NCBI GenBank assembly: GCA_029858305.1
Contig: JAOUFI010000075.1
Coordinates: 1-11,100 of the forward strand
Direction: 5' to 3'
Origin: Candidatus Thorarchaeota archaeon
GTDB lineage: Archaea > Asgardarchaeota > Thorarchaeia > Thorarchaeales > Thorarchaeaceae
DNA: 11,100 nt
A model generated the notes under the pieces. The model saw only the letters and a program-made list of their open reading frames with translations, did not search any database and was not told the DNA's origin. Of the stretch, positions 1 through 11,100 are shown one piece after another. A program made the translations under genes and the position numbers. Within the stretch, counting starts at the first letter, position 1. The number at the start of each line of letters is the position of its first letter.

Positions 1-2
1 AC

Positions 3-1298
3 CCAGTACTCCCAGGAGCAGTTATACGTCCAGCAAATGCAGCAGAGGTTTCTGAAATTCTAAAAGCCGCTAGTAATTATAATGTACCAGTAACTGCAAG
101 ATCTGGAGGCTCTAGCCTTCAAGAAGAGGCAATCCCGGAACCTGATGGTCTAGTTGTTGAACTGATGCGACTCACTGAGATCACTCTCCACAAGGAACTT
201 CGCTCCGTAACAGTTGGTGCTGGTGTGACCTATGGGATGCTAGAGAAAACACTCAAAGATAACAACCTCTTCCTCCCCGTCTATCCAGAATCAGCACTTG
301 TCTGCACGGTAGCTGGTAATGTTGCGGTGAATGGTGCAGGTCCTGGTTCAAGCGGATTTGGGTGCACAGGAGAGCTTGTGCTCGGAATGGAGGTTGTCCT
401 ACCCGATGGAAGAATTATCCAAACTGGCTCAGAAGCCAATCCGAATGCGCCTGGACCATTTCAGAGGTATGCCTTTGGACCAGATCTTACAGGAGTGTTC
501 ATTGGTTCCCTCGGGAGCTTTGGAATAATAACCAAGGTTTCCATGAAGACCTTTAGAAGATACGAGTATTTTGAGCACAATACCTTTGGTTTTGATACTC
601 ACAAACAAGCAGAGCAATTCTTGGTTGCTATCAAGAATCACGATATCAATGGTATCTTTACATCTCTATATGAAGGGCCAGTGCTCGAGATGTTCATGGA
701 CATGATTGGGGATGAACTTGGTATCCCGAAATATGAGTGGCCTTTCCGAACAGTGTCTATGACTATAGGCCGAATCAGAGAGGACATGGCAAGGAGTGAT
801 GGCGAATTAGCAAAGAAACTCTGCGAGGAGAATGGGGGTCATGTGATTGGGATCGTGGAACTCCCGAAGAGTGAATGGGAGGGAAGACTCTGGTTCTTTG
901 TTCGCGCCTGTTATGTTCACGGATGGCACTGGAGGACTCTGTATCACCACCAAACACCGACGAATGCACATCGATCCGTCGAAGAGATACGGAAGGCCAT
1001 GGACAAGTATGGTATTCTTGGACACACCGCAGGCTTTCAGGTTGGTCACTCCTCCTTCAACGCATATCCGCACCTCTACTTCGATCCACAAGACAGGGAG
1101 GATGAGCAGAAGGTCCGTGATGCTCACAGGGAACTTGCCTCAACCCTATTCAGAACGGGAGCAGTACCATTCAAGTTAGCCGAATATTGGAAAGACGCCA
1201 TTGAAGGGATGGATACCTACATGGCATTTCTTGGGCTTGTGAAGAAGACGATTGACAGCAATGGAATCATGAACCCACGAGTTCTGGGAGGTCTCTGA
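3..1298 (+). CDS. FAD-binding oxidoreductase, GlcD/FAD-linked oxidase (VAO/PCMH) family; 5' truncated by the window edge
   Basis: The frame is open from position 3 (PVLPGAVIRPANAAEVSEILKAASNYNVPVTARSGGSSL), a typical FAD_binding_4 start, so the ATG at 165 is internal. Further family motifs: VTVGAGV, TVAGNVAVNGAG, VLGMEVVLPDG, GPDLTGVFIGSLGSFGIITK and C-terminal KKTIDSNGIMNP. Confidence 0.9.
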   Translation, partial: PVLPGAVIRPANAAEVSEILKAASNYNVPVTARSGGSSLQEEAIPEPDGLVVELMRLTEITLHKELRSVTVGAGVTYGMLEKTLKDNNLFLPVYPESALVCTVAGNVAVNGAGPGSSGFGCTGELVLGMEVVLPDGRIIQTGSEANPNAPGPFQRYAFGPDLTGVFIGSLGSFGIITKVSMKTFRRYEYFEHNTFGFDTHKQAEQFLVAIKNHDINGIFTSLYEGPVLEMFMDMIGDELGIPKYEWPFRTVSMTIGRIREDMARSDGELAKKLCEENGGHVIGIVELPKSEWEGRLWFFVRACYVHGWHWRTLYHHQTPTNAHRSVEEIRKAMDKYGILGHTAGFQVGHSSFNAYPHLYFDPQDREDEQKVRDAHRELASTLFRTGAVPFKLAEYWKDAIEGMDTYMAFLGLVKKTIDSNGIMNPRVLGGL

Positions 1299-1300
1299 CA

Positions 1301-2464
1301 ATGACTGATGTTGATATGGATGAATTGATGGAAAATCTTGCACAGTGTCGAAGATGCGGCATATGCCGAAATGCAGTCTATGAAGATAGGGGTTTCAATG
1401 GAGTTTGCCCAGTCTGGAAAAATTCCTCTGGTTTTGAAACCAGCTTCATGCGTGGGAGACTACAGGTAGCTATCGCTCTTCTTGAAGGAAGACTTGAGAA
1501 GACAGCAGAGAACGCAGAGTCACTCTACACATGTACACTCTGTGGCAATTGTACTGCAATATGTGCTGCTGAATTTGATCCTACACGCTGTCTTGAAAAT
1601 GTTCGAGAAATCCTTAATGAGATTCCTAACGAATCTCGGGATGAAATTGCAAAGAAGATACAGATTTACAATAATCCGTATTCAGAGAATAATAGTTCAC
1701 GGCGTAGTTGGGCTGTTGACATTGGTTTTGATATCCCAAGCACAGGAGAAGTGCTCTATTTCACAGGTTGCACAGCTGGCTTGAAATTGCCTGAAACAGC
1801 GAAATCCACAGCTCATGTATTGAGGGCTGCAGGAGTCGATTTTGCAGTCTTAGAGGATGAACCGTGTTGTGGTAGTGTTATGATACGTACAGGAAGAAGT
1901 GACAGTGCTAGGGAAAATGCAAAACGGGTTCTTGAGAAGATCAGGAACTCTGGTGCAGAAACCGTTATTGTTTCCTGCGCTGGATGTCTAAAAACTCTTC
2001 GAGAAGATTACAACGAACGCTTTGGCTTGGACATGCCTAAAGTCTTGCATGTGATTGAATACCTCCTGCCGATGATTCAGAATAAGAAATTGAAACTGAA
2101 ACCTTTTGAAAAACCTGTTAAGATATCTTGGCACGATCCCTGCCACATGGGCAGAGCTCTAGGAATCTATGAAGAACCTCGAGAGATTATCAGGGCAATC
2201 CCTAATGTTGAACTAGTCGAAATGGATACGAATCGAGCTGCAACAATGTGCTGTGGAGCTGGTGGAGGATTACGGTCGTATGATGGAGAGATTGCAAAGA
2301 AAATTGCGTCTGATAGAATCAAGAGTGCACAAGAAATCGGAGCTGACATTCTCGCAACAGCTTGCCCGTTCTGTGAACATAATCTGAAGGATGGCGCAGA
2401 ACGAATAGAAAGCAAAATCAAAATAGTAGACATCCTAGACCTACTTTCTCAACAACTCGAATGA
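1301..2464 (+). CDS. (Fe-S)-binding protein, GlcF/HdrD-like: 4Fe-4S dicluster plus two cysteine-rich CCG domains
   Basis: Ferredoxin-type motifs CRRCGIC...CP and CTLCGNCTAIC. CCG domain 1: YFTGC...EPCCG...SCAGC. CCG domain 2: WHDPCH...CCGAGGG...TACPFC. Only 2 nt separate it from the oxidoreductase stop, so they are probably co-transcribed. Confidence 0.92.
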   Translation: MTDVDMDELMENLAQCRRCGICRNAVYEDRGFNGVCPVWKNSSGFETSFMRGRLQVAIALLEGRLEKTAENAESLYTCTLCGNCTAICAAEFDPTRCLENVREILNEIPNESRDEIAKKIQIYNNPYSENNSSRRSWAVDIGFDIPSTGEVLYFTGCTAGLKLPETAKSTAHVLRAAGVDFAVLEDEPCCGSVMIRTGRSDSARENAKRVLEKIRNSGAETVIVSCAGCLKTLREDYNERFGLDMPKVLHVIEYLLPMIQNKKLKLKPFEKPVKISWHDPCHMGRALGIYEEPREIIRAIPNVELVEMDTNRAATMCCGAGGGLRSYDGEIAKKIASDRIKSAQEIGADILATACPFCEHNLKDGAERIESKIKIVDILDLLSQQLE

Positions 2465-2471
2465 AAAATAT

Positions 2472-2520
2472 GGAATCCAACAGGCAAGTGATTGAGTAGA
2501 ATTGTTAATGGATTCCTTTT
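2472..2520 (+). terminator. Possible terminator hairpin between convergent genes
   Basis: Inverted repeat GGAATCCA (2472-2479) / TGGATTCC (2509-2516), followed by TTTT and preceded by AAAAA (2464-2468), in the convergent intergenic gap. Confidence 0.35.
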
Positions 2521-2545
2521 CGCATGTCAATCTGTGAGTGTATTT

Positions 2546-3001
2546 CTATATTGGGCTTAAGAACCACATTCGGTAGGTCTCATAAAACAAGAGAGCAATG
2601 GTTGATAAGACCACAAACAAGAACAGGATGTCCTTCCCATCCGGCGGCATAGACATGAAGAACATCACATACGGCACAAGAATACAGACTAAAAAAGATG
2701 CTAAGAACACAAAACGTGGCAGAAAATGTCTGCCCAACTGAACGAACAAGCTAAGTGAACCTACCCGCACATCTTTCTTGATTGAGTATTCTCCAAATTC
2801 ATCTTTTTTGATTAGATTAGCATCCATAAGTTTGGCAAGATGATGGATGACCAAGCTAGGACTCGAAAAATTTAGAATGTGTTGTATATCTCGCATCCGC
2901 ATTGAATCACGTGTAAGGAGTAATGCATACACCTTCATAGTCTTACCATTGAGCAACTCGGCTACTTGCTTGTCATCAATTCTATTGGACATTTTTTTCA
3001 C
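2546..3001 (-). CDS. Winged-helix (ArsR-like) transcriptional regulator with two C-terminal transmembrane helices
   Basis: N-terminal wHTH (KTMKVYALLL...MRMRDIQHILNFSSPSLVIHHLAKLMDANLIKKDEFGEYSI), then hydrophobic segments FVFLASFLVCILVPYVMFF and ILFLFVVLSTIALLFY. Start is GTG 3001 or ATG 2992, with a GGAG RBS-like motif overlapping the upstream gene's stop. Confidence 0.8.
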   Translation of the reverse strand: MKKMSNRIDDKQVAELLNGKTMKVYALLLTRDSMRMRDIQHILNFSSPSLVIHHLAKLMDANLIKKDEFGEYSIKKDVRVGSLSLFVQLGRHFLPRFVFLASFLVCILVPYVMFFMSMPPDGKDILFLFVVLSTIALLFYETYRMWFLSPI

Positions 3002-3007
3002 CCACTC

Positions 3008-3871
3008 CTATTCCAATGATTGCTGCCGGCTCACAACATAAATCACACTAAGAATAATCGTTCCCAAGATAAATGGTATCGCTGTAATTGGGAGAATCAT
3101 CATTCTTTCCTCGATACTTGGAGTATTAGTGTCAATACTATCATCATCAGCTGATTGTATAACTTGAGTGAATTGAATTGTCACAGAATCTGTTCCAAAT
3201 TGCAAATCATCCATTGATGATGCTTCAAAGATATACTCGATGATCCATTCATCATCAACTAGAGTAAAATTCACTCCAAGAGCAAGAGTAGTTGGACCAC
3301 AGGCAAAGTTAGTTCCATCTTTGAAATATACCTTGAGTGTATGAAACTCGAGAATAAATCCAGCCATTGTTAAATTGTTCAAGTCACTCTCGCGAATGTA
3401 TCCAATATGCATGCCAAATTTCGAGTCAGAATCCCATTCTACAGAACCAGAGCTTGCTGATGCAGATGCAGTTCTATTTTCCCAATCATCGTACAATCTA
3501 GTTTCTCCAAGGTATGCAAAAGAATAATACTTGAGTTCATCATAACCAATTCCAACGGCATCTGTTTTGTTGAACCCATTATGTATCTGTAACCTCTCAG
3601 TAAATACACCCATTGGAAAATCGATTGTATCATTTAGAAATCCGAATTCGAGGTTTCCAACGATTTGGGTTCCCTGCGAGCCACTGTCAATTATAATTGT
3701 TAAAGGAGCGGTAGGAAGACCTGTCCAATGCACATAGTCTTTAGGTTCATCATCAACGATTTGTGGTTGTTCTGAAAATATTGCCGCAATAAGAACTATT
3801 GAAGCAAGAAGTGCTGCAATAATTACTACAGTTACGAGTATCCTGCGAATATCTCTATTATATCGTTGCAT
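3008..3871 (-). CDS. Hypothetical membrane/surface protein with N- and C-terminal transmembrane anchors
   Basis: 287-aa ORF with an N-terminal hydrophobic helix (ILVTVVIIAALLASIVLIAAIF), an acidic, probably beta-rich middle domain containing five N-x-T sequons (NDT, NKT, NRT, NLT, NFT), and a C-terminal helix (ILPITAIPFILGTIILSVIYVV). Confidence 0.75.
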   Translation of the reverse strand: MQRYNRDIRRILVTVVIIAALLASIVLIAAIFSEQPQIVDDEPKDYVHWTGLPTAPLTIIIDSGSQGTQIVGNLEFGFLNDTIDFPMGVFTERLQIHNGFNKTDAVGIGYDELKYYSFAYLGETRLYDDWENRTASASASSGSVEWDSDSKFGMHIGYIRESDLNNLTMAGFILEFHTLKVYFKDGTNFACGPTTLALGVNFTLVDDEWIIEYIFEASSMDDLQFGTDSVTIQFTQVIQSADDDSIDTNTPSIEERMMILPITAIPFILGTIILSVIYVVSRQQSLE

Positions 3872-3883
3872 GAATATCCCTTG

Positions 3884-3914
3884 AGAATAACATGATACAT
3901 TTTGTATTTATTCT
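3884..3914. promoter_or_regulatory. Imperfect inverted repeat over the likely promoter of the 3871-2546 operon (candidate operator)
   Basis: AGAATAA-catg-ATACA-ttt-TGTAT-TTATTCT. It overlaps a minus-strand TAAATA box (3905-3910) about 35 nt upstream of ATG 3871. Confidence 0.3.
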
Positions 3915-4017
3915 ATTCATTGAAATCAGGTTTTTAGTTCATTATGTAGTTATTCAATTCGTTGAATATTTAGTAAACACAGGACAATATGTGTTCTTAG
4001 AGGTGTAGAAGAAGTAG

Positions 4018-4257
4018 TGGACGAAGGCCAACAGCCTATATTTAGGGCCCATTTTGGGGCTCGAGGTCCACCCTCTCTTTTCTCTTTAAGCATGAGTGGT
4101 GCTCGCTAAACACACTGTTCTGGTATCTCCCTGAACCTTTTCGGTGAGAGACGAATCTCCGACGTCGGGACATTCGTATAGACCTGTTCAGTGCATCTGC
4201 GCCGTTCCCACGACTACCGACGACGCACGGAGCAACATGGTGTCGGCCAATCGTCCA
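4018..4257 (-). ncRNA. Candidate structured non-coding RNA (~240 nt) of unknown family
   Basis: The 5' and 3' ends pair (UGGACGA-UU-GGCCGACA / UGUUGGCC-U-UCGUCCA) and enclose seven further helices. Eight G-U wobbles form on the minus strand only. GC is about 54% by hand count versus about 22% at 3901-3960. A TATA-like TTTATG lies 25-30 nt upstream and a pyrimidine-rich tract follows the 3' end. Confidence 0.6.
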
Positions 4258-4377
4258 ATAAATACATACGTAAAATATCAACATAAACTCTTCCTCCGCA
4301 ACAACAAACATCTAACTATTCTATATCAATAGAATAGTATATAAGAGAACGACAAGAAATGACCAGAAGAACCAGAG

Positions 4378-5454
4378 GTGGCACTATTGGACGGAATTAA
4401 AGTTGCTATTGTTGGAGTTGGAAATGTCGCAAGCGCTCTAGTCCAAGGAGTAGAGTACTATAAAGATGCAAAAACGGATGGAGATGTGCCCGGACTTGCG
4501 CATCCAGACTTCGCAGGGTTCCATGTGAGAGATATTGAGTTTGTTGCAGCTTTTGATGTTGCAGACACGAAGGCCGGATTTGACCTTTCTGAAGCAATCT
4601 TTGCGAAACCCAATAATGTGATGCGATTTTCAAAGGTCCCAAAGACTGGGATCAAAGTTCAGAAAGGACCTCTGCTTGATGGCGTCGATAAAATATTGAA
4701 AGCACTTGTTAGTGTATCAAATGCTCCAGATGCAGATGCTGTTCAGGTGCTACGTGAATCAAAGGCGGAAATCCTGCTCAATCTCTTACCAGGCTCAGCA
4801 GAAGAGGCGACAAAGTACTATGCACAGGTAGCTCTTGATGCGGGGTGTGCATACATCAATGGAACCCCAATTCCAATCGCATCCGACCTTGAATGGAGCA
4901 AGAAATTTGAAGAGAAAGGAATTCCACTCGTTGGTGACGACATTCAAGACCAACTTGGCTCAACTGTTTTACATCGTAGTATTCTCCAACTCTTGGTAGC
5001 AAGAGGTGTGAGAGTAGATAAGAGCTATCAGCTCGATGTCGGCGGTGGTGCAGAGTCTCTCGACTCACACTACAGAGGCAGAATGAGAAAGAGAGGCGTA
5101 AAGAGTGAAGCTATTAGCCAAGATCTCCCCTATGACGCACCTCTCGTCGCGGGTTCATCAGATTATGTAGATTTCATGGATAATGCCCGTGATTCGTTCT
5201 TCTACATTAATGGTCGTCAATTCGGTGGTGCACCTATTAAGATCGATATCAGAATGGAAGTCACAGATGGCCCTAATGCAGGTCCAATTCTGCTTGATGC
5301 AATAAGAGGCACAAAATTGGCTTTAAAGCGAGGAATTGGAGGTTCACTTGAATCAATATCAGCATATGGTTTCAAAATGCCGCCAACTCCTACGACTATG
5401 TACAGAGCAGAACGTTGGGTTGAAGAGTTCCTCTTAGGAAAAAGAAAACTCTAG
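4378..5454 (+). CDS. ino1: myo-inositol-1-phosphate synthase family protein (divergent active-site motifs)
   Basis: IKVAIVGVGNVASALVQGVEYY, DIEFVAAFDV, DLSEAIFAKPNN, YINGTP, GIPLVGDD, SDYV, DGPN and final FKMPP are characteristic of archaeal/actinobacterial MIPS. Start is GTG 4378, or TTG 4387 with GAGGTG as its RBS. Confidence 0.88.
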   Translation: MALLDGIKVAIVGVGNVASALVQGVEYYKDAKTDGDVPGLAHPDFAGFHVRDIEFVAAFDVADTKAGFDLSEAIFAKPNNVMRFSKVPKTGIKVQKGPLLDGVDKILKALVSVSNAPDADAVQVLRESKAEILLNLLPGSAEEATKYYAQVALDAGCAYINGTPIPIASDLEWSKKFEEKGIPLVGDDIQDQLGSTVLHRSILQLLVARGVRVDKSYQLDVGGGAESLDSHYRGRMRKRGVKSEAISQDLPYDAPLVAGSSDYVDFMDNARDSFFYINGRQFGGAPIKIDIRMEVTDGPNAGPILLDAIRGTKLALKRGIGGSLESISAYGFKMPPTPTTMYRAERWVEEFLLGKRKL

Positions 5455-5459
5455 GAAAT

Positions 5460-5864
5460 CTAGCTGTGAGCTTTCTCGTACTCTTCTAGAAGTGTCTTTA
5501 GGTCATCCAGATTGGAGAACACTGAGAACTCTGTTTCCGCTCCAATCTCCTGGAGAATCTCATTGAAAGCAATGATGCTTTCATAATCAGTTTGGAAAGT
5601 AGCTTTTGCTTCTTCAGTTGTCGCTTTTGGATCATATACAACAATCCGATTCTCAGGCTCGAAGTTGACAACGATACTGCGGTCCAAGTACATTACTTTC
5701 TTGCATTTCGGACATTGAACTCGATTGGCCTTTCCAATCTTCAAGGCCTTGATAATCTCACGGTCTTCTGAGAGATCGATATGTTCTATCACTTGAGTCT
5801 CGAAGACGCTCTTGCACTTCTCACACTTGATCTCTGCTATACTTGTTCCGGTCAAACTAGTCAC
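5460..5864 (-). CDS. CpXC domain-containing (probable zinc-binding) protein
   Basis: IKCEKCKSVFETQVIEHID...GKANRVQCPKCKKVMYLD...IVVYDP matches the CpXC layout (CxxC, about 33 aa, CPxC). An alternative TTG start at 5855 follows an AGGTGA RBS. Confidence 0.75.
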   Translation of the reverse strand: MTSLTGTSIAEIKCEKCKSVFETQVIEHIDLSEDREIIKALKIGKANRVQCPKCKKVMYLDRSIVVNFEPENRIVVYDPKATTEEAKATFQTDYESIIAFNEILQEIGAETEFSVFSNLDDLKTLLEEYEKAHS

Positions 5865-5957
5865 CTAGAATTAGCGTGAAAGTCTTTTCCTATTCACTTA
5901 AGATTTCCGTAGTAGGTATTAATAATGAAGTTATCCATTTGCACAACGAAAATGGTC

Positions 5958-6593
5958 TTAGTTTTCCATTTTCCCTGATTCATTCTCATCATCATCAAAA
6001 ATCTCTGTTTCGAGGATATCCTGAAGCATATCTGACTCTTTGCCCTCAGTCTTTCGTTTTAATAAGAATCCAGTAATTAATGCAGTAAGAGCAATTGAAG
6101 CTAATACTATAGGCATTGACTCGAAATAGCTACCGACACTGTATCCTATCAATGCACCTATGACTGTGACTGTTACTTTTCCAATAAAATAGCTAAATAG
6201 GAATTTTACAGGACTATATCTCGCAAAACCCACATATACAATGAGCGGATCATCAGGGACTGGAGATGCTGCGGCAATAAAGAGAGCTATAGCTCCCCAT
6301 TTTTCAACCCTCTGTTTCTCAGAATCTAGTGAAGCTAGACGTTCATCGGAGAGAACAGCCCGTGATCCTCGGACAACAAAGAAATGTATCAATTTAGCGG
6401 TAGTAGCTGAAATTGCGACAACAATGCCAACAATGAAAGGATTAAAACTTGGTAAAAGTAGCATTGCTGCACCTGCGAGGACCATGTTGCTTGGGCTTAG
6501 AAATGGGATCATATTAATTATGAAACAAACAATCAGAAGGCCAAAATAGCCTTGACTAATCATATCACTAATGAATAGAATGATGTCTTGCAT
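5958..6593 (-). CDS. DedA/VTT (SNARE-associated Golgi protein-like) family membrane protein
   Basis: Multiple hydrophobic helices, with NMIPFLSPS and LFIAAASPVPDDPLIVYVGFARYSPVKFLFSYFIGK typical of archaeal VTT-domain proteins; acidic C-terminal tail. Confidence 0.8.
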   Translation of the reverse strand: MQDIILFISDMISQGYFGLLIVCFIINMIPFLSPSNMVLAGAAMLLLPSFNPFIVGIVVAISATTAKLIHFFVVRGSRAVLSDERLASLDSEKQRVEKWGAIALFIAAASPVPDDPLIVYVGFARYSPVKFLFSYFIGKVTVTVIGALIGYSVGSYFESMPIVLASIALTALITGFLLKRKTEGKESDMLQDILETEIFDDDENESGKMEN

Positions 6594-6642
6594 CTACAAA
6601 ACACCCAAATTGAATGAAAGTGACGACAGAGTGCTTCCTATC

Positions 6643-7065
6643 CTAAACATCGACTTTCTTAATTATTACCCTTTGAACTCCGTCTAAGACATTGAGAGAA
6701 CTCTCAAGCTCGCTCAAATCAGAACTGAGTTGGTTGGGATTGAAATAGCACTCGTAAAAACAACGTGTTCCTCGAAGACAAACTCCTGTGGAGAATAGCA
6801 AATCGACCAATCCTGCCCTCTTAAAAATCTGAGATAGTTTTGTGAGAAAATCATTACTTAATTTTCCAATCTCAAGACTCAAGAAGAGGACCTCGTCACT
6901 ATCTAGAGGAAAAATCTTGATGAGACGATCTTTGTGCACTAGCACCATTAGACCACGATCTGTTCCCATTGCATTCTTGAATGAAGTCGGAAATTTGACC
7001 GACTCGCCTTCACTGAATAAAAGTACTCTTCCAGCTGTTGCTCCTTCATAGGAATCCTCTGACAT
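6643..7065 (-). CDS. Putative regulator: AbrB/SpoVT-like N-terminal domain plus C-terminal ACT-like domain
   Basis: The N-terminal EGESVKFPTSFKNAMG...LMVLVHKDRLIKIFP resembles a swapped-hairpin domain. The C-terminal LSLEI..LSNDFLTKLSQIF...LSELESSLNVLDGVQRVII has the beta-alpha-beta-beta-alpha-beta ACT pattern. A GGTGA RBS lies 4 nt before the ATG. Confidence 0.55.
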   Translation of the reverse strand: MSEDSYEGATAGRVLLFSEGESVKFPTSFKNAMGTDRGLMVLVHKDRLIKIFPLDSDEVLFLSLEIGKLSNDFLTKLSQIFKRAGLVDLLFSTGVCLRGTRCFYECYFNPNQLSSDLSELESSLNVLDGVQRVIIKKVDV

Positions 7066-7223
7066 CTAATCACCGCGCGCCCTATTCTTTTCTCCGTAGG
7101 GAAATCCTGTTTATGAATGCATCCAAAACTCGAATATAAAAGCATCTAGTGTTTGATACATAATACTATACTAATGATGGTGCTCCTTTTCAATGTCTAT
7201 GAGTGACTATAAAATGAATCAAG

Positions 7224-7484
7224 TTGAAACTTACAGAAGATGAACGAACAGCTTTCTCAAAATTTAGAGATGTCTCAGAGCTCAGAATCCAGTTTCAATG
7301 TGAATACAGATTCTATCTCATGCAACAGAGAAACAAAGTGATGACTGAGGCAAGTATTGGCGGCACAATGCTACACAATCAAGTACTACCGTGCGAATTC
7401 GACGAGTCTCCAGCTCATAGCTGGATATCTTTTGGGATCATCATTCTGATTGTTGTTATTGGTATCATGTGGATAGTATGGTGA
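7224..7484 (+). CDS. N-terminal half of a split Cas4/Exo5-like nuclease, with C-terminal transmembrane helix
   Basis: DVSELRIQFQCEYRFYL...MTEASIGGTMLH matches the Cas4/Exo5/AddB N-terminal S..(Q)..C..r..L....T.a...G...H segment, including the first Fe-S Cys. It ends in WISFGIIILIVVIGIMWIVW. TTG start; an in-frame stop at 7215 limits upstream extension. Confidence 0.7.
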   Translation: MKLTEDERTAFSKFRDVSELRIQFQCEYRFYLMQQRNKVMTEASIGGTMLHNQVLPCEFDESPAHSWISFGIIILIVVIGIMWIVW

Positions 7485-7488
7485 TGAA

Positions 7489-8151
7489 ATGTATCAATTA
7501 CTGAATATTCTAGCATTTCTGCTTCTCATTACTACTATAGCTTTCATAGGACTCATCAGATCCAACACCATTCATAGAAGGACTTCGCGCATCCTTAGAA
7601 AAGCACAAAACGCTCCTTGGAATCTTGTCGAGTTCACCCGATTACATCCAAGTCAGTGGAATAGGCGTGAGTATTACCGATTCACAGAAGAACCAGTGAG
7701 GTCTTTTGCCCATCGATATAATGGAAGATTTGATACAGCAATTCTACATTGGGAAGAGGCTGCAGTTTTGGATCTCATGATTGAGTACAAGTTCCCGGTT
7801 AGATATTTACCAAAAAAGATGAAGGAAGAGGATTACTTTCAGACAGGCCTTTATTCTCTGGCTCTAGCAGAATCAGGGATATCATGCAGCTCAACAAAAC
7901 TCGTTACAGTATACTGCTTGCAAGATGTTGCGAAAAGATGTATTCATGACAAATTGAAGAGGAATTGTTGGCACTGCGAACATGGGAGAGTCTTTGAGAA
8001 AAGATTCAATCCTGATACTATCCAAAAACATCTGAAGATGCTCGATGAAGTATGGTACAAAAAACGTCTACCGAAAGCAACACCATCAGAAACGAAATGT
8101 AAACCATGCTCTTTTTCTAAAACTGGGGATTGCAATTACTCAGTAGTATAA
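7489..8151 (+). CDS. C-terminal half of a split Cas4/Exo5-like PD-(D/E)xK nuclease, with N-terminal transmembrane helix
   Basis: N-terminal signal-anchor (LLNILAFLLLITTIAFIGLI) followed by basic residues. RecB-type motifs GRFD, IEYK and QTGLY (QxxxY), and C-terminal KCKPCSFSKTGDC supplying three Fe-S Cys. GGTGA RBS at 7480-7484. Confidence 0.8.
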   Translation: MYQLLNILAFLLLITTIAFIGLIRSNTIHRRTSRILRKAQNAPWNLVEFTRLHPSQWNRREYYRFTEEPVRSFAHRYNGRFDTAILHWEEAAVLDLMIEYKFPVRYLPKKMKEEDYFQTGLYSLALAESGISCSSTKLVTVYCLQDVAKRCIHDKLKRNCWHCEHGRVFEKRFNPDTIQKHLKMLDEVWYKKRLPKATPSETKCKPCSFSKTGDCNYSVV

Positions 8152-8174
8152 TTATAGACTGAAAAGCATAGACC

Positions 8175-8180
8175 TTAATA
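8175..8180 (+). promoter_or_regulatory. TATA-like box for a probably leaderless transcript of 8206-8622
   Basis: TTAATA lies about 26-31 nt upstream of ATG 8206, with purine-rich GAAAAG further upstream and no RBS before the ATG. Confidence 0.35.
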
Positions 8181-8205
8181 CGCCCACGCACAGAATGACA
8201 ATATC

Positions 8206-8622
8206 ATGGCTCGAGACTTGATGAAACTTCTGACACAAGTAATAACTGCAAAGAGAGACCTAAAACAGATCTACTATACAAGTAGAAATAAAGAATCCAA
8301 ACTGGATGCAAAAGAGTTAGTGGCAGCAGTGATTGGAGTGCAGAAATTATTGGAGGACCTAATCGACCTGAGTCGAAAGAGAAGAATTGCTAAGAAAGTG
8401 CTAGATGACAGAAAAGCTGAGTTGACGATCAGAAGGTGGTCAATGGGTTTACCAAAGCGTGTTAAGGATTTTGTTGAAAAGGCGAAAAATCTTGAGCAGC
8501 AGCATCTAACGAAGTATTGTGAGTCATTATTGCAGTACATTACCTCTATCGGTGAAGAGCTGGCAAAATGGATTGAGGACATTACCACCCTGGCAGAGAT
8601 ACCAAAGCCGCCCCGCGGTTAG
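8206..8622 (+). CDS. Hypothetical all-alpha (helical bundle/coiled-coil) protein
   Basis: 138-aa ORF with amphipathic heptad-like helices, a basic middle (SRKRRIAKK) and a Pro-rich tail (IPKPPRG). No family recognised. Confidence 0.75.
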   Translation: MARDLMKLLTQVITAKRDLKQIYYTSRNKESKLDAKELVAAVIGVQKLLEDLIDLSRKRRIAKKVLDDRKAELTIRRWSMGLPKRVKDFVEKAKNLEQQHLTKYCESLLQYITSIGEELAKWIEDITTLAEIPKPPRG

Positions 8623-8637
8623 ATATTTCAGACGGTC

Positions 8638-9717
8638 TTAATATCGCAACCGCGCAGCAATCCCACCAAATGCCTTTAGTTGTGTACCTGACTCTGTTTG
8701 ATTTGAAAAAACGAGTAGCTCAGAGCCGTATTGGGATACATCTTCATAGATCGTGTCAATTTGATCTGCAAGGTCTTCAGTGATTAAAAGTGTCTGTACA
8801 CGTCCAATCTTTAGAGCATCAAATACCTCTTTTTTGCCGTAGGTTACTGTGTTTAGGCCTTTCATGAGATCTCCCATGAATGCATCCCATGCTTGACGTT
8901 CAGCATAAATCTCGGTTTCCTTCATAATTCTAGATGCATCTTTCATTGCCTGATAGAGACCTGTTTCATCGATTATACTCACAGGAATGATTGTTTCTAC
9001 TATCTTATCACGAAGTCTGTAGTCAAGGTCTCCCTTTTCGAGGAATTCCTGACATCGGATAGTGTTTCCTCCTAGCACAATTGCATCCACATTTTCAATT
9101 TTATCAATTAGTAATTCTGCCATGAGTCTACCAACATATTTGAAGAACTCTTGCATCTTTTCCTCTCGAATTCGAAGATACCTGTTTGCACTCTGTCCAC
9201 CGGCTCTTGTCTTACCAATTATGTAAAAGTCCTCATCCCGGATAAGCTCCATGTGCTTGCCACGAAGATAACCTATCGTAACTTTTCCTCCTTCTATGAG
9301 AACTATAACGACAAGACTCTTTGGCTGAGTCATATTCTCAAGTTCTTCAGTAATAAACTCGCGACCACAAGTGTAAACGAATTGAGAAATGGGAGATGGT
9401 GGAACAACCATCTCGCGAATTGCTCTACCAGTTCCGCCCTCTTCCTCGATGCCAAAAAAGAACGCTAATCCTGTTGGAGGCAGAGTGTTTATCTTTGTTA
9501 ATTCACTGAGAATCGCTGTTAGATTATCTGCTACGTTTTTCCTGTTTGCTTTACTCTTTATGTTGTCGGCACCAGCTAATTCGGTCTTCACAAAGCTAGT
9601 CACATCAGTAAGACTCTTTGTGGGAGGAATATATAATGTGGTGAATGAACTGTGTCGTCCCTGGTAAGCTTTCAGCTGCTCTACTTTGCGTTTTAGCTTT
9701 TGACGTTCAACAGACAT
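8638..9717 (-). CDS. prf1: Peptide chain release factor aRF1 (eRF1 family), compact form
   Basis: NIKS (ADNIKSKANR), YxCxxxF (YTCGREF), GGQ (TRAGGQSANRY) and C-terminal FGGIAARLRY. The likely start is ATG 9717 (MSVERQKLK; 359 aa) preceded by AGGTGA, rather than TTG 9774. Confidence 0.93.
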   Translation of the reverse strand: MSVERQKLKRKVEQLKAYQGRHSSFTTLYIPPTKSLTDVTSFVKTELAGADNIKSKANRKNVADNLTAILSELTKINTLPPTGLAFFFGIEEEGGTGRAIREMVVPPSPISQFVYTCGREFITEELENMTQPKSLVVIVLIEGGKVTIGYLRGKHMELIRDEDFYIIGKTRAGGQSANRYLRIREEKMQEFFKYVGRLMAELLIDKIENVDAIVLGGNTIRCQEFLEKGDLDYRLRDKIVETIIPVSIIDETGLYQAMKDASRIMKETEIYAERQAWDAFMGDLMKGLNTVTYGKKEVFDALKIGRVQTLLITEDLADQIDTIYEDVSQYGSELLVFSNQTESGTQLKAFGGIAARLRY

Positions 9718-9847
9718 CTTCTTCACCTTCAATGGGTTGCGGTTACTGATTTCATCAAAAATCAGAGGCGGCAATCAACTGCCAAGTGAATCCCAAGATT
9801 GAGTATATTTTAACATTGTGTCATAGCTCCGACTGAAAGACGACAGA

Positions 9848-9854
9848 TTAAAAA
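9848..9854 (+). promoter_or_regulatory. TATA-like box of the pheS transcript
   Basis: TTAAAAA preceded by purine-rich GAAAGACGACAGA; it would place a start site near 9875-9880, just before the structured leader. Confidence 0.3.
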
Positions 9855-9893
9855 GGAAGACCTAGTAGGTCATTTTAATCAGGTGAAGGACGG

Positions 9894-9926
9894 ATGGATA
9901 ACCGCCAATTTATTATGCTCCATTGA
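9894..9926 (+). CDS. Possible 10-codon upstream ORF (MDNRQFIMLH) in the pheS leader
   Basis: AGGTGA (9881-9886) lies 7 nt before ATG 9894; TGA at 9924-9926; one Phe codon. Confidence 0.25.
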   Translation: MDNRQFIMLH

Positions 9927-10005
9927 GAAGGAGCCTTCAATCATCATTTTACAAAACGTGCGGTTTATCGGTCCAAGTCACAAGATGCAGGAGTTTTGAG
10001 CAACC

Positions 10006-11100
10006 ATGACTGAACAACTGACAGAGGGAGAAAGAATAATTCTTAGGGGTATTATCGAATTAGGGAACAGAGTGCCAGCCTCTGAGGTTGCTGATTTTAC
10101 AAAGCAAAAGAATGAGAGAGTAGTTTCCATTCTAAATTCCCTTGCTAGTAGAGGAATCATAAAACTTGAAACTCGTGAGATTACCTCGTACACCCTCACT
10201 GATGAAGGCAAGGAATATGCGAATGAAGGACTTCCTGAGACTCGATTAATCAAAGCCATTGAAGAACTTGGAGGAACTGCTGGTGTTGATGAAGCTGTAG
10301 CACGATCAGGATTGTCACCCAAAAGCAAAGGTATTGCATTGAACTGGGCAAAACGTAATGGATGGGTGACAATATCAAAACAAGAAGATACCACAATCCT
10401 ATCTAGCGTGAAAAGTGATGTTCAATCACCTGTTGCTAAAGCGCTGAATCTCATTGCAGAACATAAGGAGAGAGGAAGTCAGATTGACAACACAACCCTA
10501 AGACAATTAATCGAAAGAAATCTAGTGAATGAAGCTATCATAAAAAGTGTTGAAGCTGAAATATCTCAGGAATATACAGACATTATCGAGGAGCTACTCA
10601 GCGGGTCAATGGGCGAAATTGGAGACCTTACTCCTGAGATTTTGGCAAGTGGATCGTGGAAAGGAAAATCATTCAGGCCCTATAATGTCGGTATAGCTCC
10701 GGTCTACGTCAATTATGGGAAAAAACATCCATACGCAGAATTCAATGATTGGTTAAGAGAAATCATGGTGGGATTAGGCTTTACAGAATGGTTTGGTCCC
10801 TATGTTGAAACTGAGTTTTGGGGCCATGATACTCTCTTTGTTCCTCAAGATCATGTGGCACGTGAAGTTCAGGATCAGTTCAGAGTCGCCTCCCCATACA
10901 GCCATGGTCATATTCTAGATACTAAGTACTATGAATTTGTGAAGAGGGTTCACGAAGATGGGGGTGATACAGGGTCAAAGGGATGGGATTGGCCATATAG
11001 CAAAGAGATTGCTACAAGGCTTTGCCTTAGGCCACACACGACTCCCGTATCGATGAGATATCTCTACGAACATCGAGAGAGTCCACAAAAGATGTTCATC
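10006..11100 (+). CDS. pheS: Phenylalanine--tRNA ligase alpha subunit, archaeal type; 3' truncated by the window edge
   Basis: Missing from the ORF track because there is no stop in the window. Translation from ATG 10006: MTEQLTEGERIIL...YTLTDEGKEYANEGLPE...WAKRNGWV...LTPEILASGSWKGKSFRPYNV...GKKHPY...GLGFTE...FVPQDHVAREVQD...HEDGGDTGSKGW...LRPHTT. Confidence 0.95.
   Translation, partial: MTEQLTEGERIILRGIIELGNRVPASEVADFTKQKNERVVSILNSLASRGIIKLETREITSYTLTDEGKEYANEGLPETRLIKAIEELGGTAGVDEAVARSGLSPKSKGIALNWAKRNGWVTISKQEDTTILSSVKSDVQSPVAKALNLIAEHKERGSQIDNTTLRQLIERNLVNEAIIKSVEAEISQEYTDIIEELLSGSMGEIGDLTPEILASGSWKGKSFRPYNVGIAPVYVNYGKKHPYAEFNDWLREIMVGLGFTEWFGPYVETEFWGHDTLFVPQDHVAREVQDQFRVASPYSHGHILDTKYYEFVKRVHEDGGDTGSKGWDWPYSKEIATRLCLRPHTTPVSMRYLYEHRESPQKMFI

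Follow-up and report, generated by a model that had tools for sequence, protein, structure and literature searches.

Large, intricately folded RNAs with strong covariation are rare, and those of known function, such as the RNAs of RNase P and of the signal recognition particle (SRP), OLE and the HEARO/omega RNAs, mostly do sophisticated jobs. RNase P RNA is nearly universal, and its long-range P4 helix is conserved between CR-I and CR-V. The OLE, raiA, ROOL and GOLLD RNAs are conserved, covarying and lineage-restricted intergenic structures that carry transcription signals of their own; they had no function assigned at discovery, and their complexity suggests roles in ribonucleoproteins (RNPs) or other functions of a higher order. 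The Hgc RNAs came from base-composition screens, as GC-rich noncoding RNA (ncRNA) islands of AT-rich archaeal genomes. This report concerns a stretch of 11,100 nucleotides (nt) from a Candidatus Thorarchaeota archaeon (GenBank assembly GCA_029858305.1, contig JAOUFI010000075.1, positions 1–11,100; hereafter the window), in which the minus-strand segment 4017–4257 is shown to be an independent single-copy gene for a structured ncRNA of about 240 nt. This RNA constitutes a well-supported new family, previously unannotated and specific to Thorarchaeota; within one archaeal family, most members carry it. A preprint (bioRxiv 10.1101/2024.12.08.627333) deals with the orphan large structured ncRNAs of bacteria, and literature and full-text searches, within the portions of the sources that were accessible, returned no description of a Thorarchaeota-specific structured RNA.

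The extent of the gene was defined with a covariance model, R1 (243 positions, 62 pairs), built from an alignment of 24 copies (A1/A2) from which a contig-end fragment (locus L011) and a 36-nt chance match (L028) had been left out. R1 matched the window over its full length (model positions 1–243) with 226.1 bits, spanning ~241 nt from the first base of the closing stem through CGUCCAC. A sequence-only reading of the window, made before this analysis, had placed a multi-helix RNA at 4018–4257 of the minus strand; the strand stands, and the lower coordinate differs by one. That reading had also derived the orientation from eight G-U pairs, and the family bears it out: the window RNA has eight G-U pairs in the consensus structure and all covariance-model matches fall on the RNA (minus) strand, which together support this orientation. 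When the single sequence was folded, the minus strand beat chance, with a minimum free energy of −91.9 kcal/mol (z = −3.78) that none of 200 shuffles equaled, and the plus strand gave z = −2.14, equaled by six of 200 shuffles. The RNA lies in a GC island, as had been claimed, with 50% GC in 4000–4299 versus 30–37% in 3800–4099 on its downstream side. In this base composition within an AT-rich intergenic region, and in the archaeal-type TATA box upstream, the RNA is similar to the Hgc RNAs, from which it differs in having no matching Rfam Hgc family, far more covariation, and a wider, class-level distribution.

A DNA search recovered copies of the RNA, 69–88% identical, in 22 of the 27 other genomes of its genus and in a single genome from a second genus. 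R1 gave one full-length match in 68 of the 87 genomes of the class, representing 15 of 17 genera. Of 24 high-quality genomes (completeness ≥90%, contamination ≤5%), 22 gave a match; the other two come from genus g10 (0/4 genomes with a match) and from family f2 (0/1), and a filters-off search beside the neighboring myo-inositol-1-phosphate synthase gene in two g10 genomes (G036 and G079) and in the f2 genome (G037) found no RNA. Of 151 genomes sampled from the phylum, 124 fall outside the family, and in these R1 produced no credible match, its best fragments scoring 12–14 bits. A broader core model, R2 (174 positions, 45 diverse members), which would miss distant homologues reduced to the P1 rod or to hairpin F (both described below), yielded three weak matches in the same 124 genomes, none of them credible; the best, at 26.9 bits, lies within an open reading frame (ORF) of 279 amino acids (aa) and leaves 122 positions in the middle of the model without alignment. 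When 185,579 species genomes were scanned with a motif pattern, 26 stretches were obtained, of which 24 are archaeal (by title, 18 Thorarchaeota, three Promethearchaeota, one Hermodarchaeota and two uncultured archaeon); the two bacterial stretches have no model match and were set aside as chance.

Copy number and reading frame bear on two simpler explanations of the locus. The first, a mobile or repeated element such as a miniature inverted-repeat transposable element, might find encouragement in the variable gene content just downstream of the RNA. The 240-nt stretch, however, is present once in its own genome (3.04 Mb in 205 contigs, 88.9% complete) in both DNA and R1 searches and is thus not a dispersed repeat; it is single-copy in every matching genome, occupies a syntenic position and has no flanking direct repeats, and the viral contigs held a single pattern match, which was inside an ORF, had no model match and is attributed to chance. 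The second, a small protein gene, takes its cue from an 89-aa ORF (4042–4311) that overlaps the RNA on the same strand. That ORF is without a Pfam match and its frame is not conserved. The spacing between two invariant anchors is divided 30/12/25 among the three values modulo 3 and the best reading frame is open in no more than 15 of 67 sequences, so the RNA region is non-coding. These copy-number and frame results refute both explanations, to which virtually no probability is assigned. Genome G020 has a second, partial copy of the RNA (C292:1–162) at the very end of a short contig; this copy is more likely to be a strain variant or a duplicate made in assembly than a paralogue.

The fold of the RNA is strongly supported by covariation. 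RNAalifold, applied to the 24 copies, predicted 60 pairs, 20 of which have compensatory changes. In A3, an alignment of 68 members whose fitting to the R1 structure inflates its pair counts, 92.8% of cells were paired versus 78.8% in shuffled alignments and 39–50% in slid controls; compensatory change was present in 51 of 62 pairs and in 560 cells, versus 162 in shuffled alignments, and none of 500 shuffles reached these values. Because A3 had been fitted to the model, the count was repeated on a structure-blind MAFFT alignment of 24 sequences, which was 97.1% paired versus 93.1% when shuffled and contained 21 compensatory pairs versus 9.1 and 82 compensatory cells versus 24.3. Covariation scores of single column pairs were swamped by phylogeny, and candidate tertiary helices among the unpaired columns, e.g., GUUCA with UGGAC, consist of invariant bases only.

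In the consensus structure, a closing rod, P1, joins the 5' and 3' ends, with its 5' strand (GGACGA plus an extension, 4239–4256; all features are on the minus strand) pairing with its 3' strand (UCGUCC plus an extension, 4019–4035). The P1 helices are 95.3%, 97.7%, and 89.5% paired across the 68 sequences, and 12 of their 14 pairs are compensatory. A second helix, P2, encloses hairpin A and is neighbored by hairpin E, which is followed by the unpaired segment ACCUCGAG, hairpin F and an unpaired AAGUCUU-type linker. Stem B forms a three-way junction with hairpins C and D, and the whole fold contains two three-way junctions. In P2, UGCUC (4230–4234; family consensus GCUCC) pairs with GAGCA (4100–4104; family consensus GGAGC). 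This helix was chosen by RNAalifold on a cropped alignment and is 90% paired on alignment A4; at least five base pairs are possible in 63 of 67 sequences, the mean duplex energy is −9.2 kcal/mol versus −5.1 kcal/mol for shuffled sequences (39 of 67 sequences significant), and its variants include GCUCU/AGAGC, GCUCA/UGAGC, GCUCG/CGAGC, and AGCUUCAC/GUGGGGCU. A base helix that RNAalifold had assigned to hairpin E (GAG/CUC) barely exceeded its shuffled controls (−7.4 versus −5.8, with 8 of 67 sequences significant) and was for this reason replaced by P2, which leaves ACCUCGAG unpaired.

The sequence of hairpin A (4198–4227) is variable while its pairing is kept, with compensatory changes in 10 of 10 pairs and 87–89% of cells paired. 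The long-range stem B (4182–4195 with 4111–4124), which encloses hairpins C and D, likewise has compensatory changes in all 10 of its pairs in A3. Hairpin C (4152–4176; CGAAU-G-UCC ... GGA-G-AUUCG) is paired in 99.1% of cells and contains a purine-purine mismatch (4171/4157) in 63 of 68 sequences (GG in 48, AA in 8, GA in 4, and AG in 3); its GAAU is exact in 63 of 68. The outer helix of hairpin D (4128–4149; UCUC-ACC ... GGU-[UCA]-GAGA/GGGA) is 100% paired, and its 3-nt UCA bulge (4132–4134) is found in 66 of 68 sequences. Hairpin E (4068–4099) consists of CCACUC, an A-rich loop with AYGUUCA, and GGGUGG; 93–96% of its cells are paired and its variation is mostly one-sided, with C or U opposite an invariant G. 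The unpaired ACCUCGAG (4060–4067) contains ACCUC, part of an 11-nt block, GGGUGGACCUC, that is exact in 47 of 68 sequences. Hairpin F (4048–4059; CCC ... GGG) is 92.7% paired with compensatory changes in three of three pairs; 3 of the 24 A1/A2 sequences lack it. The mismatch of hairpin C, the UCA bulge of hairpin D, and GGGUGGACCUC are conserved beyond what pairing needs.

Five of the eight helices that had been drawn by hand in the sequence-only reading agree with this covariation-supported consensus, namely the closing stem, CGAAU/AUUCG, UCUC-ACC/GGU-GAGA with its 3-nt bulge, CCACUC/GGGUGG, and CCC/GGG. The remaining three fared no better than shuffled controls among the 68 homologues and are not conserved: a long-range "P4-like" helix, GUCUAUA/UAUAGGC (4177–4183 with 4034–4040), was paired in 45.9% of cells versus 44.2%, the register GUGCGUC-GUCG/CGGC-GAUGCAC in 54.6% versus 52.8%, and GUGUUU/GAGCAC in 52.1% versus 49.6%. 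Their bases go instead into hairpin A, stem B, and P2, the last of which was absent from the drawing.

Sequences flanking the RNA suggest a transcription unit of its own, as judged by position and conservation. The 60 nt located 5' of the RNA were aligned for 66 loci, which revealed a TATA-like box, TTTATG at 4281–4286 (family consensus CTTATG), at positions −29 to −24 counted from the first base of P1 and preceded by a purine-rich stretch resembling a transcription factor B recognition element (BRE). Such a box had been proposed at 4282–4287, and its position proved to be conserved in the 66 loci. A pyrimidine/T-rich tract lies directly after the closing stem (4000–4016), and the pyrimidine tail that had been pointed out in the window recurs after CGUCCAC in 66 loci as a C/T-rich sequence such as CTTCTTCTT or CTTTTT. 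The box is thus a putative archaeal promoter and the tail a likely terminator.

Evidence at the RNA level came from metatranscriptomes, where 24 RNA runs each contained a small share of the stretch and four of these, from four studies, were mapped as contigs rather than reads. In the four runs the contigs were confined to 4047–4246, except for one that reaches 4323, and none covered the flanking genes, which is not proof that those genes are silent. The summed word depth was ~2000 in one run, and adapter sequence follows two of the contig ends. The generic features of an independent archaeal ncRNA gene, i.e., a promoter, covariation, non-coding character, and RNA evidence, are all found at this locus, the RNA evidence being weak in that it consists of contigs only.

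Comparison with known families returned no identity for the RNA. No Rfam 15 family reached its gathering score anywhere in the window, and a scan of 3850–4420 at a relaxed threshold (E ≤ 10) gave no match on the RNA strand, the sole permissive match being SNORD75 on the plus strand (3993–4029, 13 bits). The RNA also had no Rfam 15 match in 12 divergent homologous loci, and ARAGORN found no tRNA or tmRNA gene in the window. A conserved fold in most Thorarchaeota, coupled with the lack of a match to any known family, indicates that this is probably a new cellular RNA, in line with one of the suggestions of the sequence-only reading, a new ncRNA class.

A second suggestion, that of a very divergent RNA of the RNase P/MRP type, is supported only by a loose topological resemblance (closing stem, hairpin, and long-range helices). 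Like the archaeal RNase P RNA (RF00373, type A), the Thorarchaeota RNA is a stand-alone, single-copy, multi-helix molecule of a few hundred nt, in which a closing stem joins the ends and long-range helices are combined with invariant unpaired nucleotides. Unlike it, the RNA is limited to one archaeal family and missing in one genus, shows no conservation of the one P4-like helix proposed, as seen above, and matches none of the RNaseP_arch, RNaseP_nuc, RNaseP-T, and RNase_MRP models at E ≤ 10 in 3850–4420 or in the 12 homologous loci. Moreover, its genome carries a canonical RNaseP_arch RNA elsewhere (G000:C44:45535–45873; 157.1 bits, cut-off 84), and neither similarity to nor pairing with the genome's own rRNAs, RNase P RNA or SRP RNA exceeded chance, the best BLAST score (22.3 bits) being matched by 36 of 100 shuffles. 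The archaeal SRP (7S) RNA (RF01857) is alike in size, abundance class, and rod-like pairing of the ends, but its model has no match at the RNA locus and the SRP RNA of this genome is located elsewhere. Membership in the RNase P, MRP or SRP families was consequently rejected, and a distant RNase P-like relationship is now highly improbable. The SRP RNA itself (G000:C50:9890–10201) scored 95 bits, just below the Rfam gathering score of 96.5, and would be missed by standard annotation.

Other RNA classes were also considered. No C/D boxes, ACA box or tandem G-A motif were seen in the consensus, which was inspected by eye and with no dedicated tool, and no Rfam snoRNA family matched on the RNA strand. 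The idea of a Y RNA bound by Ro60 was dropped because a TROVE protein (PF05731) was not found in the genome (88.9% complete). The RNA has more in common with OLE, raiA, ROOL, and GOLLD in general character, as a conserved, covarying, lineage-restricted intergenic structure with transcription signals of its own and a complexity suggestive of an RNP or higher-order function. It differs from them in being archaeal (Asgard) and in having no match to those of them that are in Rfam, and at ~240 nt it is shorter than OLE, ROOL, and GOLLD. Palindromic kissing loops that could drive multimers gave a negative test: palindromes in the hairpin-C loop (CUGCAG, GACGUC, AAAUUU) were not enriched (seven six-mers versus 4.8 expected), and kissing-loop dimerization through them was rejected.

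The genes that surround the RNA bear on whether it acts in cis. Upstream lies a divergent gene identified by Pfam as myo-inositol-1-phosphate synthase, which is kept in 62 of 68 loci and starts a median of 122 nt from the RNA 5' end; downstream, a convergent CCG/4Fe-4S gene is found in 58 of 68 loci at a median distance of 78 nt. The gene content between the RNA 3' end and the CCG/Fe-S gene varies between loci. The window has two genes there (2546–3871, minus strand), encoding a 287-aa membrane protein without a Pfam match, whose gene shares the strand of the RNA and begins 146 nt downstream of it, and a 151-aa ArsR/TrmB-like helix-turn-helix regulator. Neither protein had a BLASTP match in the other 67 loci, and in the two closest relatives that interval is devoid of genes. 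The stretch that follows the RNA 3' end thus appears to be a hotspot for gene gain; its use as an integration site was rejected, as neither flanking direct repeats nor a repeat of the RNA 3' end were found near the variable genes.

The sequence-only reading had offered the possibility of a cis-leader of the downstream membrane-protein operon. In its general form this explanation makes the RNA a cis-acting leader or riboswitch of a same-strand downstream gene, and it is prompted by the 287-aa protein gene in the window and by a gene for an SSB-like OB-fold protein that 24 loci of the genus carry ~179 nt downstream of the RNA, in the same orientation. It is nevertheless very unlikely, since the downstream gene content differs from locus to locus: the genes found in the window recur in 0 of 67 other loci, and the next gene is mostly the CCG/Fe-S gene on the opposite strand. 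Furthermore, the pyrimidine tail directly follows the closing stem, and the mapped contigs do not enter the downstream gene, although contigs cannot show where a transcript ends.

The SSB-like OB-fold protein is 165 aa in length (PF21473, E 5.8e-11), is encoded at L022:788–1282 (minus strand of that locus), carries a C-terminal RGG/RG-rich tail, and is absent from the window. Such a protein could bind RNA and is a possible, unproven partner of the Thorarchaeota RNA. In genome G036 (locus L108, 1375–1501), the CCG/Fe-S and synthase genes run in the same direction with 125 nt between them.

The function that best fits these properties is that of a trans-acting scaffold of an RNP, a best guess held at roughly even odds (a probability of about 0.55). 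It is favored by the size of the RNA, its two three-way junctions, its invariant non-helical elements, its putative promoter, and its likely abundance. According to this proposal, the RNA would be transcribed from its own TATA/BRE-type promoter with a start near 4257, would end in the pyrimidine tract after 4017, and would be stable and fairly abundant, acting in trans as the scaffold. The invariant elements that exceed the needs of pairing, namely the purine-purine mismatch of hairpin C, the UCA bulge of hairpin D, GGGUGGACCUC, and the AYGUUCA loop of hairpin E, would be contact surfaces for protein or RNA partners.

Several observations weigh against the scaffold proposal or the evidence beneath it. 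The analysis yielded no partner protein, no RNA-binding gene is a constant neighbor of the RNA in the 68 loci, and inspection alone found no kink-turn or other known protein-binding motif. The RNA is missing from all four g10 genomes, at the locus and elsewhere, and is thus dispensable in at least one lineage; in G036 the genes that flank the RNA in other genomes are only 125 nt apart, and g10 either lost the RNA cleanly or retains the ancestral state. With respect to the fold, support for P2 and hairpin E comes largely from invariant positions or one-sided changes, the fitting of A3 to the model raises its pair counts, and the MAFFT control is drawn mostly from one genus. As for expression, the contigs establish that the sequence occurs in RNA libraries but are silent on its strand, ends and level, and DNA carry-over is possible. 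The contig that reaches 4323 (run X7, 4176–4323, depth 3.8, eight differences in 148 nt) extends 66 nt beyond the proposed 5' end and speaks against a sharply defined 5' end in the relative from which it comes; it could represent a precursor, an antisense transcript, or DNA carry-over.

A bolder version of the scaffold proposal is tentative and considerably less probable. In it, the Thorarchaeota lineage would have given rise to an undescribed RNP machine of which the RNA is a subunit, or to a new ribozyme; GGGUGGACCUC, the UCA bulge, and the purine-purine mismatch would form the functional core of the RNA, whose structural complexity would be comparable to that of SRP or RNase P RNA. A catalytic role in itself, in which the invariant junction nucleotides would form the active site of a new class of ribozyme, is improbable. 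The RNA's size and multi-junction architecture, together with its numerous invariant unpaired nucleotides, are reminiscent of RNAs with sophisticated functions, and any such ribozyme would have to be new, as no known ribozyme family matches; on the other hand, no substrate, cleavage-site signature or processing junction was found in the mapped contigs, and the loss of a genus from the distribution of the RNA sits poorly with this role.

Somewhat less improbable than catalysis, though still unlikely, is a trans-acting regulator that would base-pair with mRNAs through the exposed ACCUC or other conserved loops and use the rest of the fold as a stabilizing scaffold. ACCUC sits in a conserved unpaired linker and coincides letter for letter with the core of the 16S anti-Shine-Dalgarno sequence CACCUCC (the genome's own 16S rRNA ends in GGATCACCTCCT), and the putative promoter and terminator of the RNA would suit a regulator as well. 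Five bases are far too short to call, however, and small regulatory RNAs seldom keep seven or more covarying helices throughout a family. In addition, no conserved complementarity to the start of the synthase mRNA was detected (mean z −0.21, with z < −2 in 1 of 62 loci).

Asgard archaea are the closest known relatives of eukaryotes and Thorarchaeota are one of their main classes, which makes a lineage-wide and likely abundant RNA a concrete target for biochemistry and cryo-electron microscopy. The covariance model now annotates the RNA gene in 68 genomes and clears away spurious ORF predictions, the 89-aa frame mentioned above among them. Between the putative RNA promoter and the divergent synthase gene, the window contains a perfect palindrome, ACTATTCTAT-TGAT-ATAGAATAGT (4315–4338), which may serve as the promoter of the synthase gene or as an operator common to the synthase and RNA genes; its half-site ATAGAATAGT is found again 5' of the RNA in many genera.

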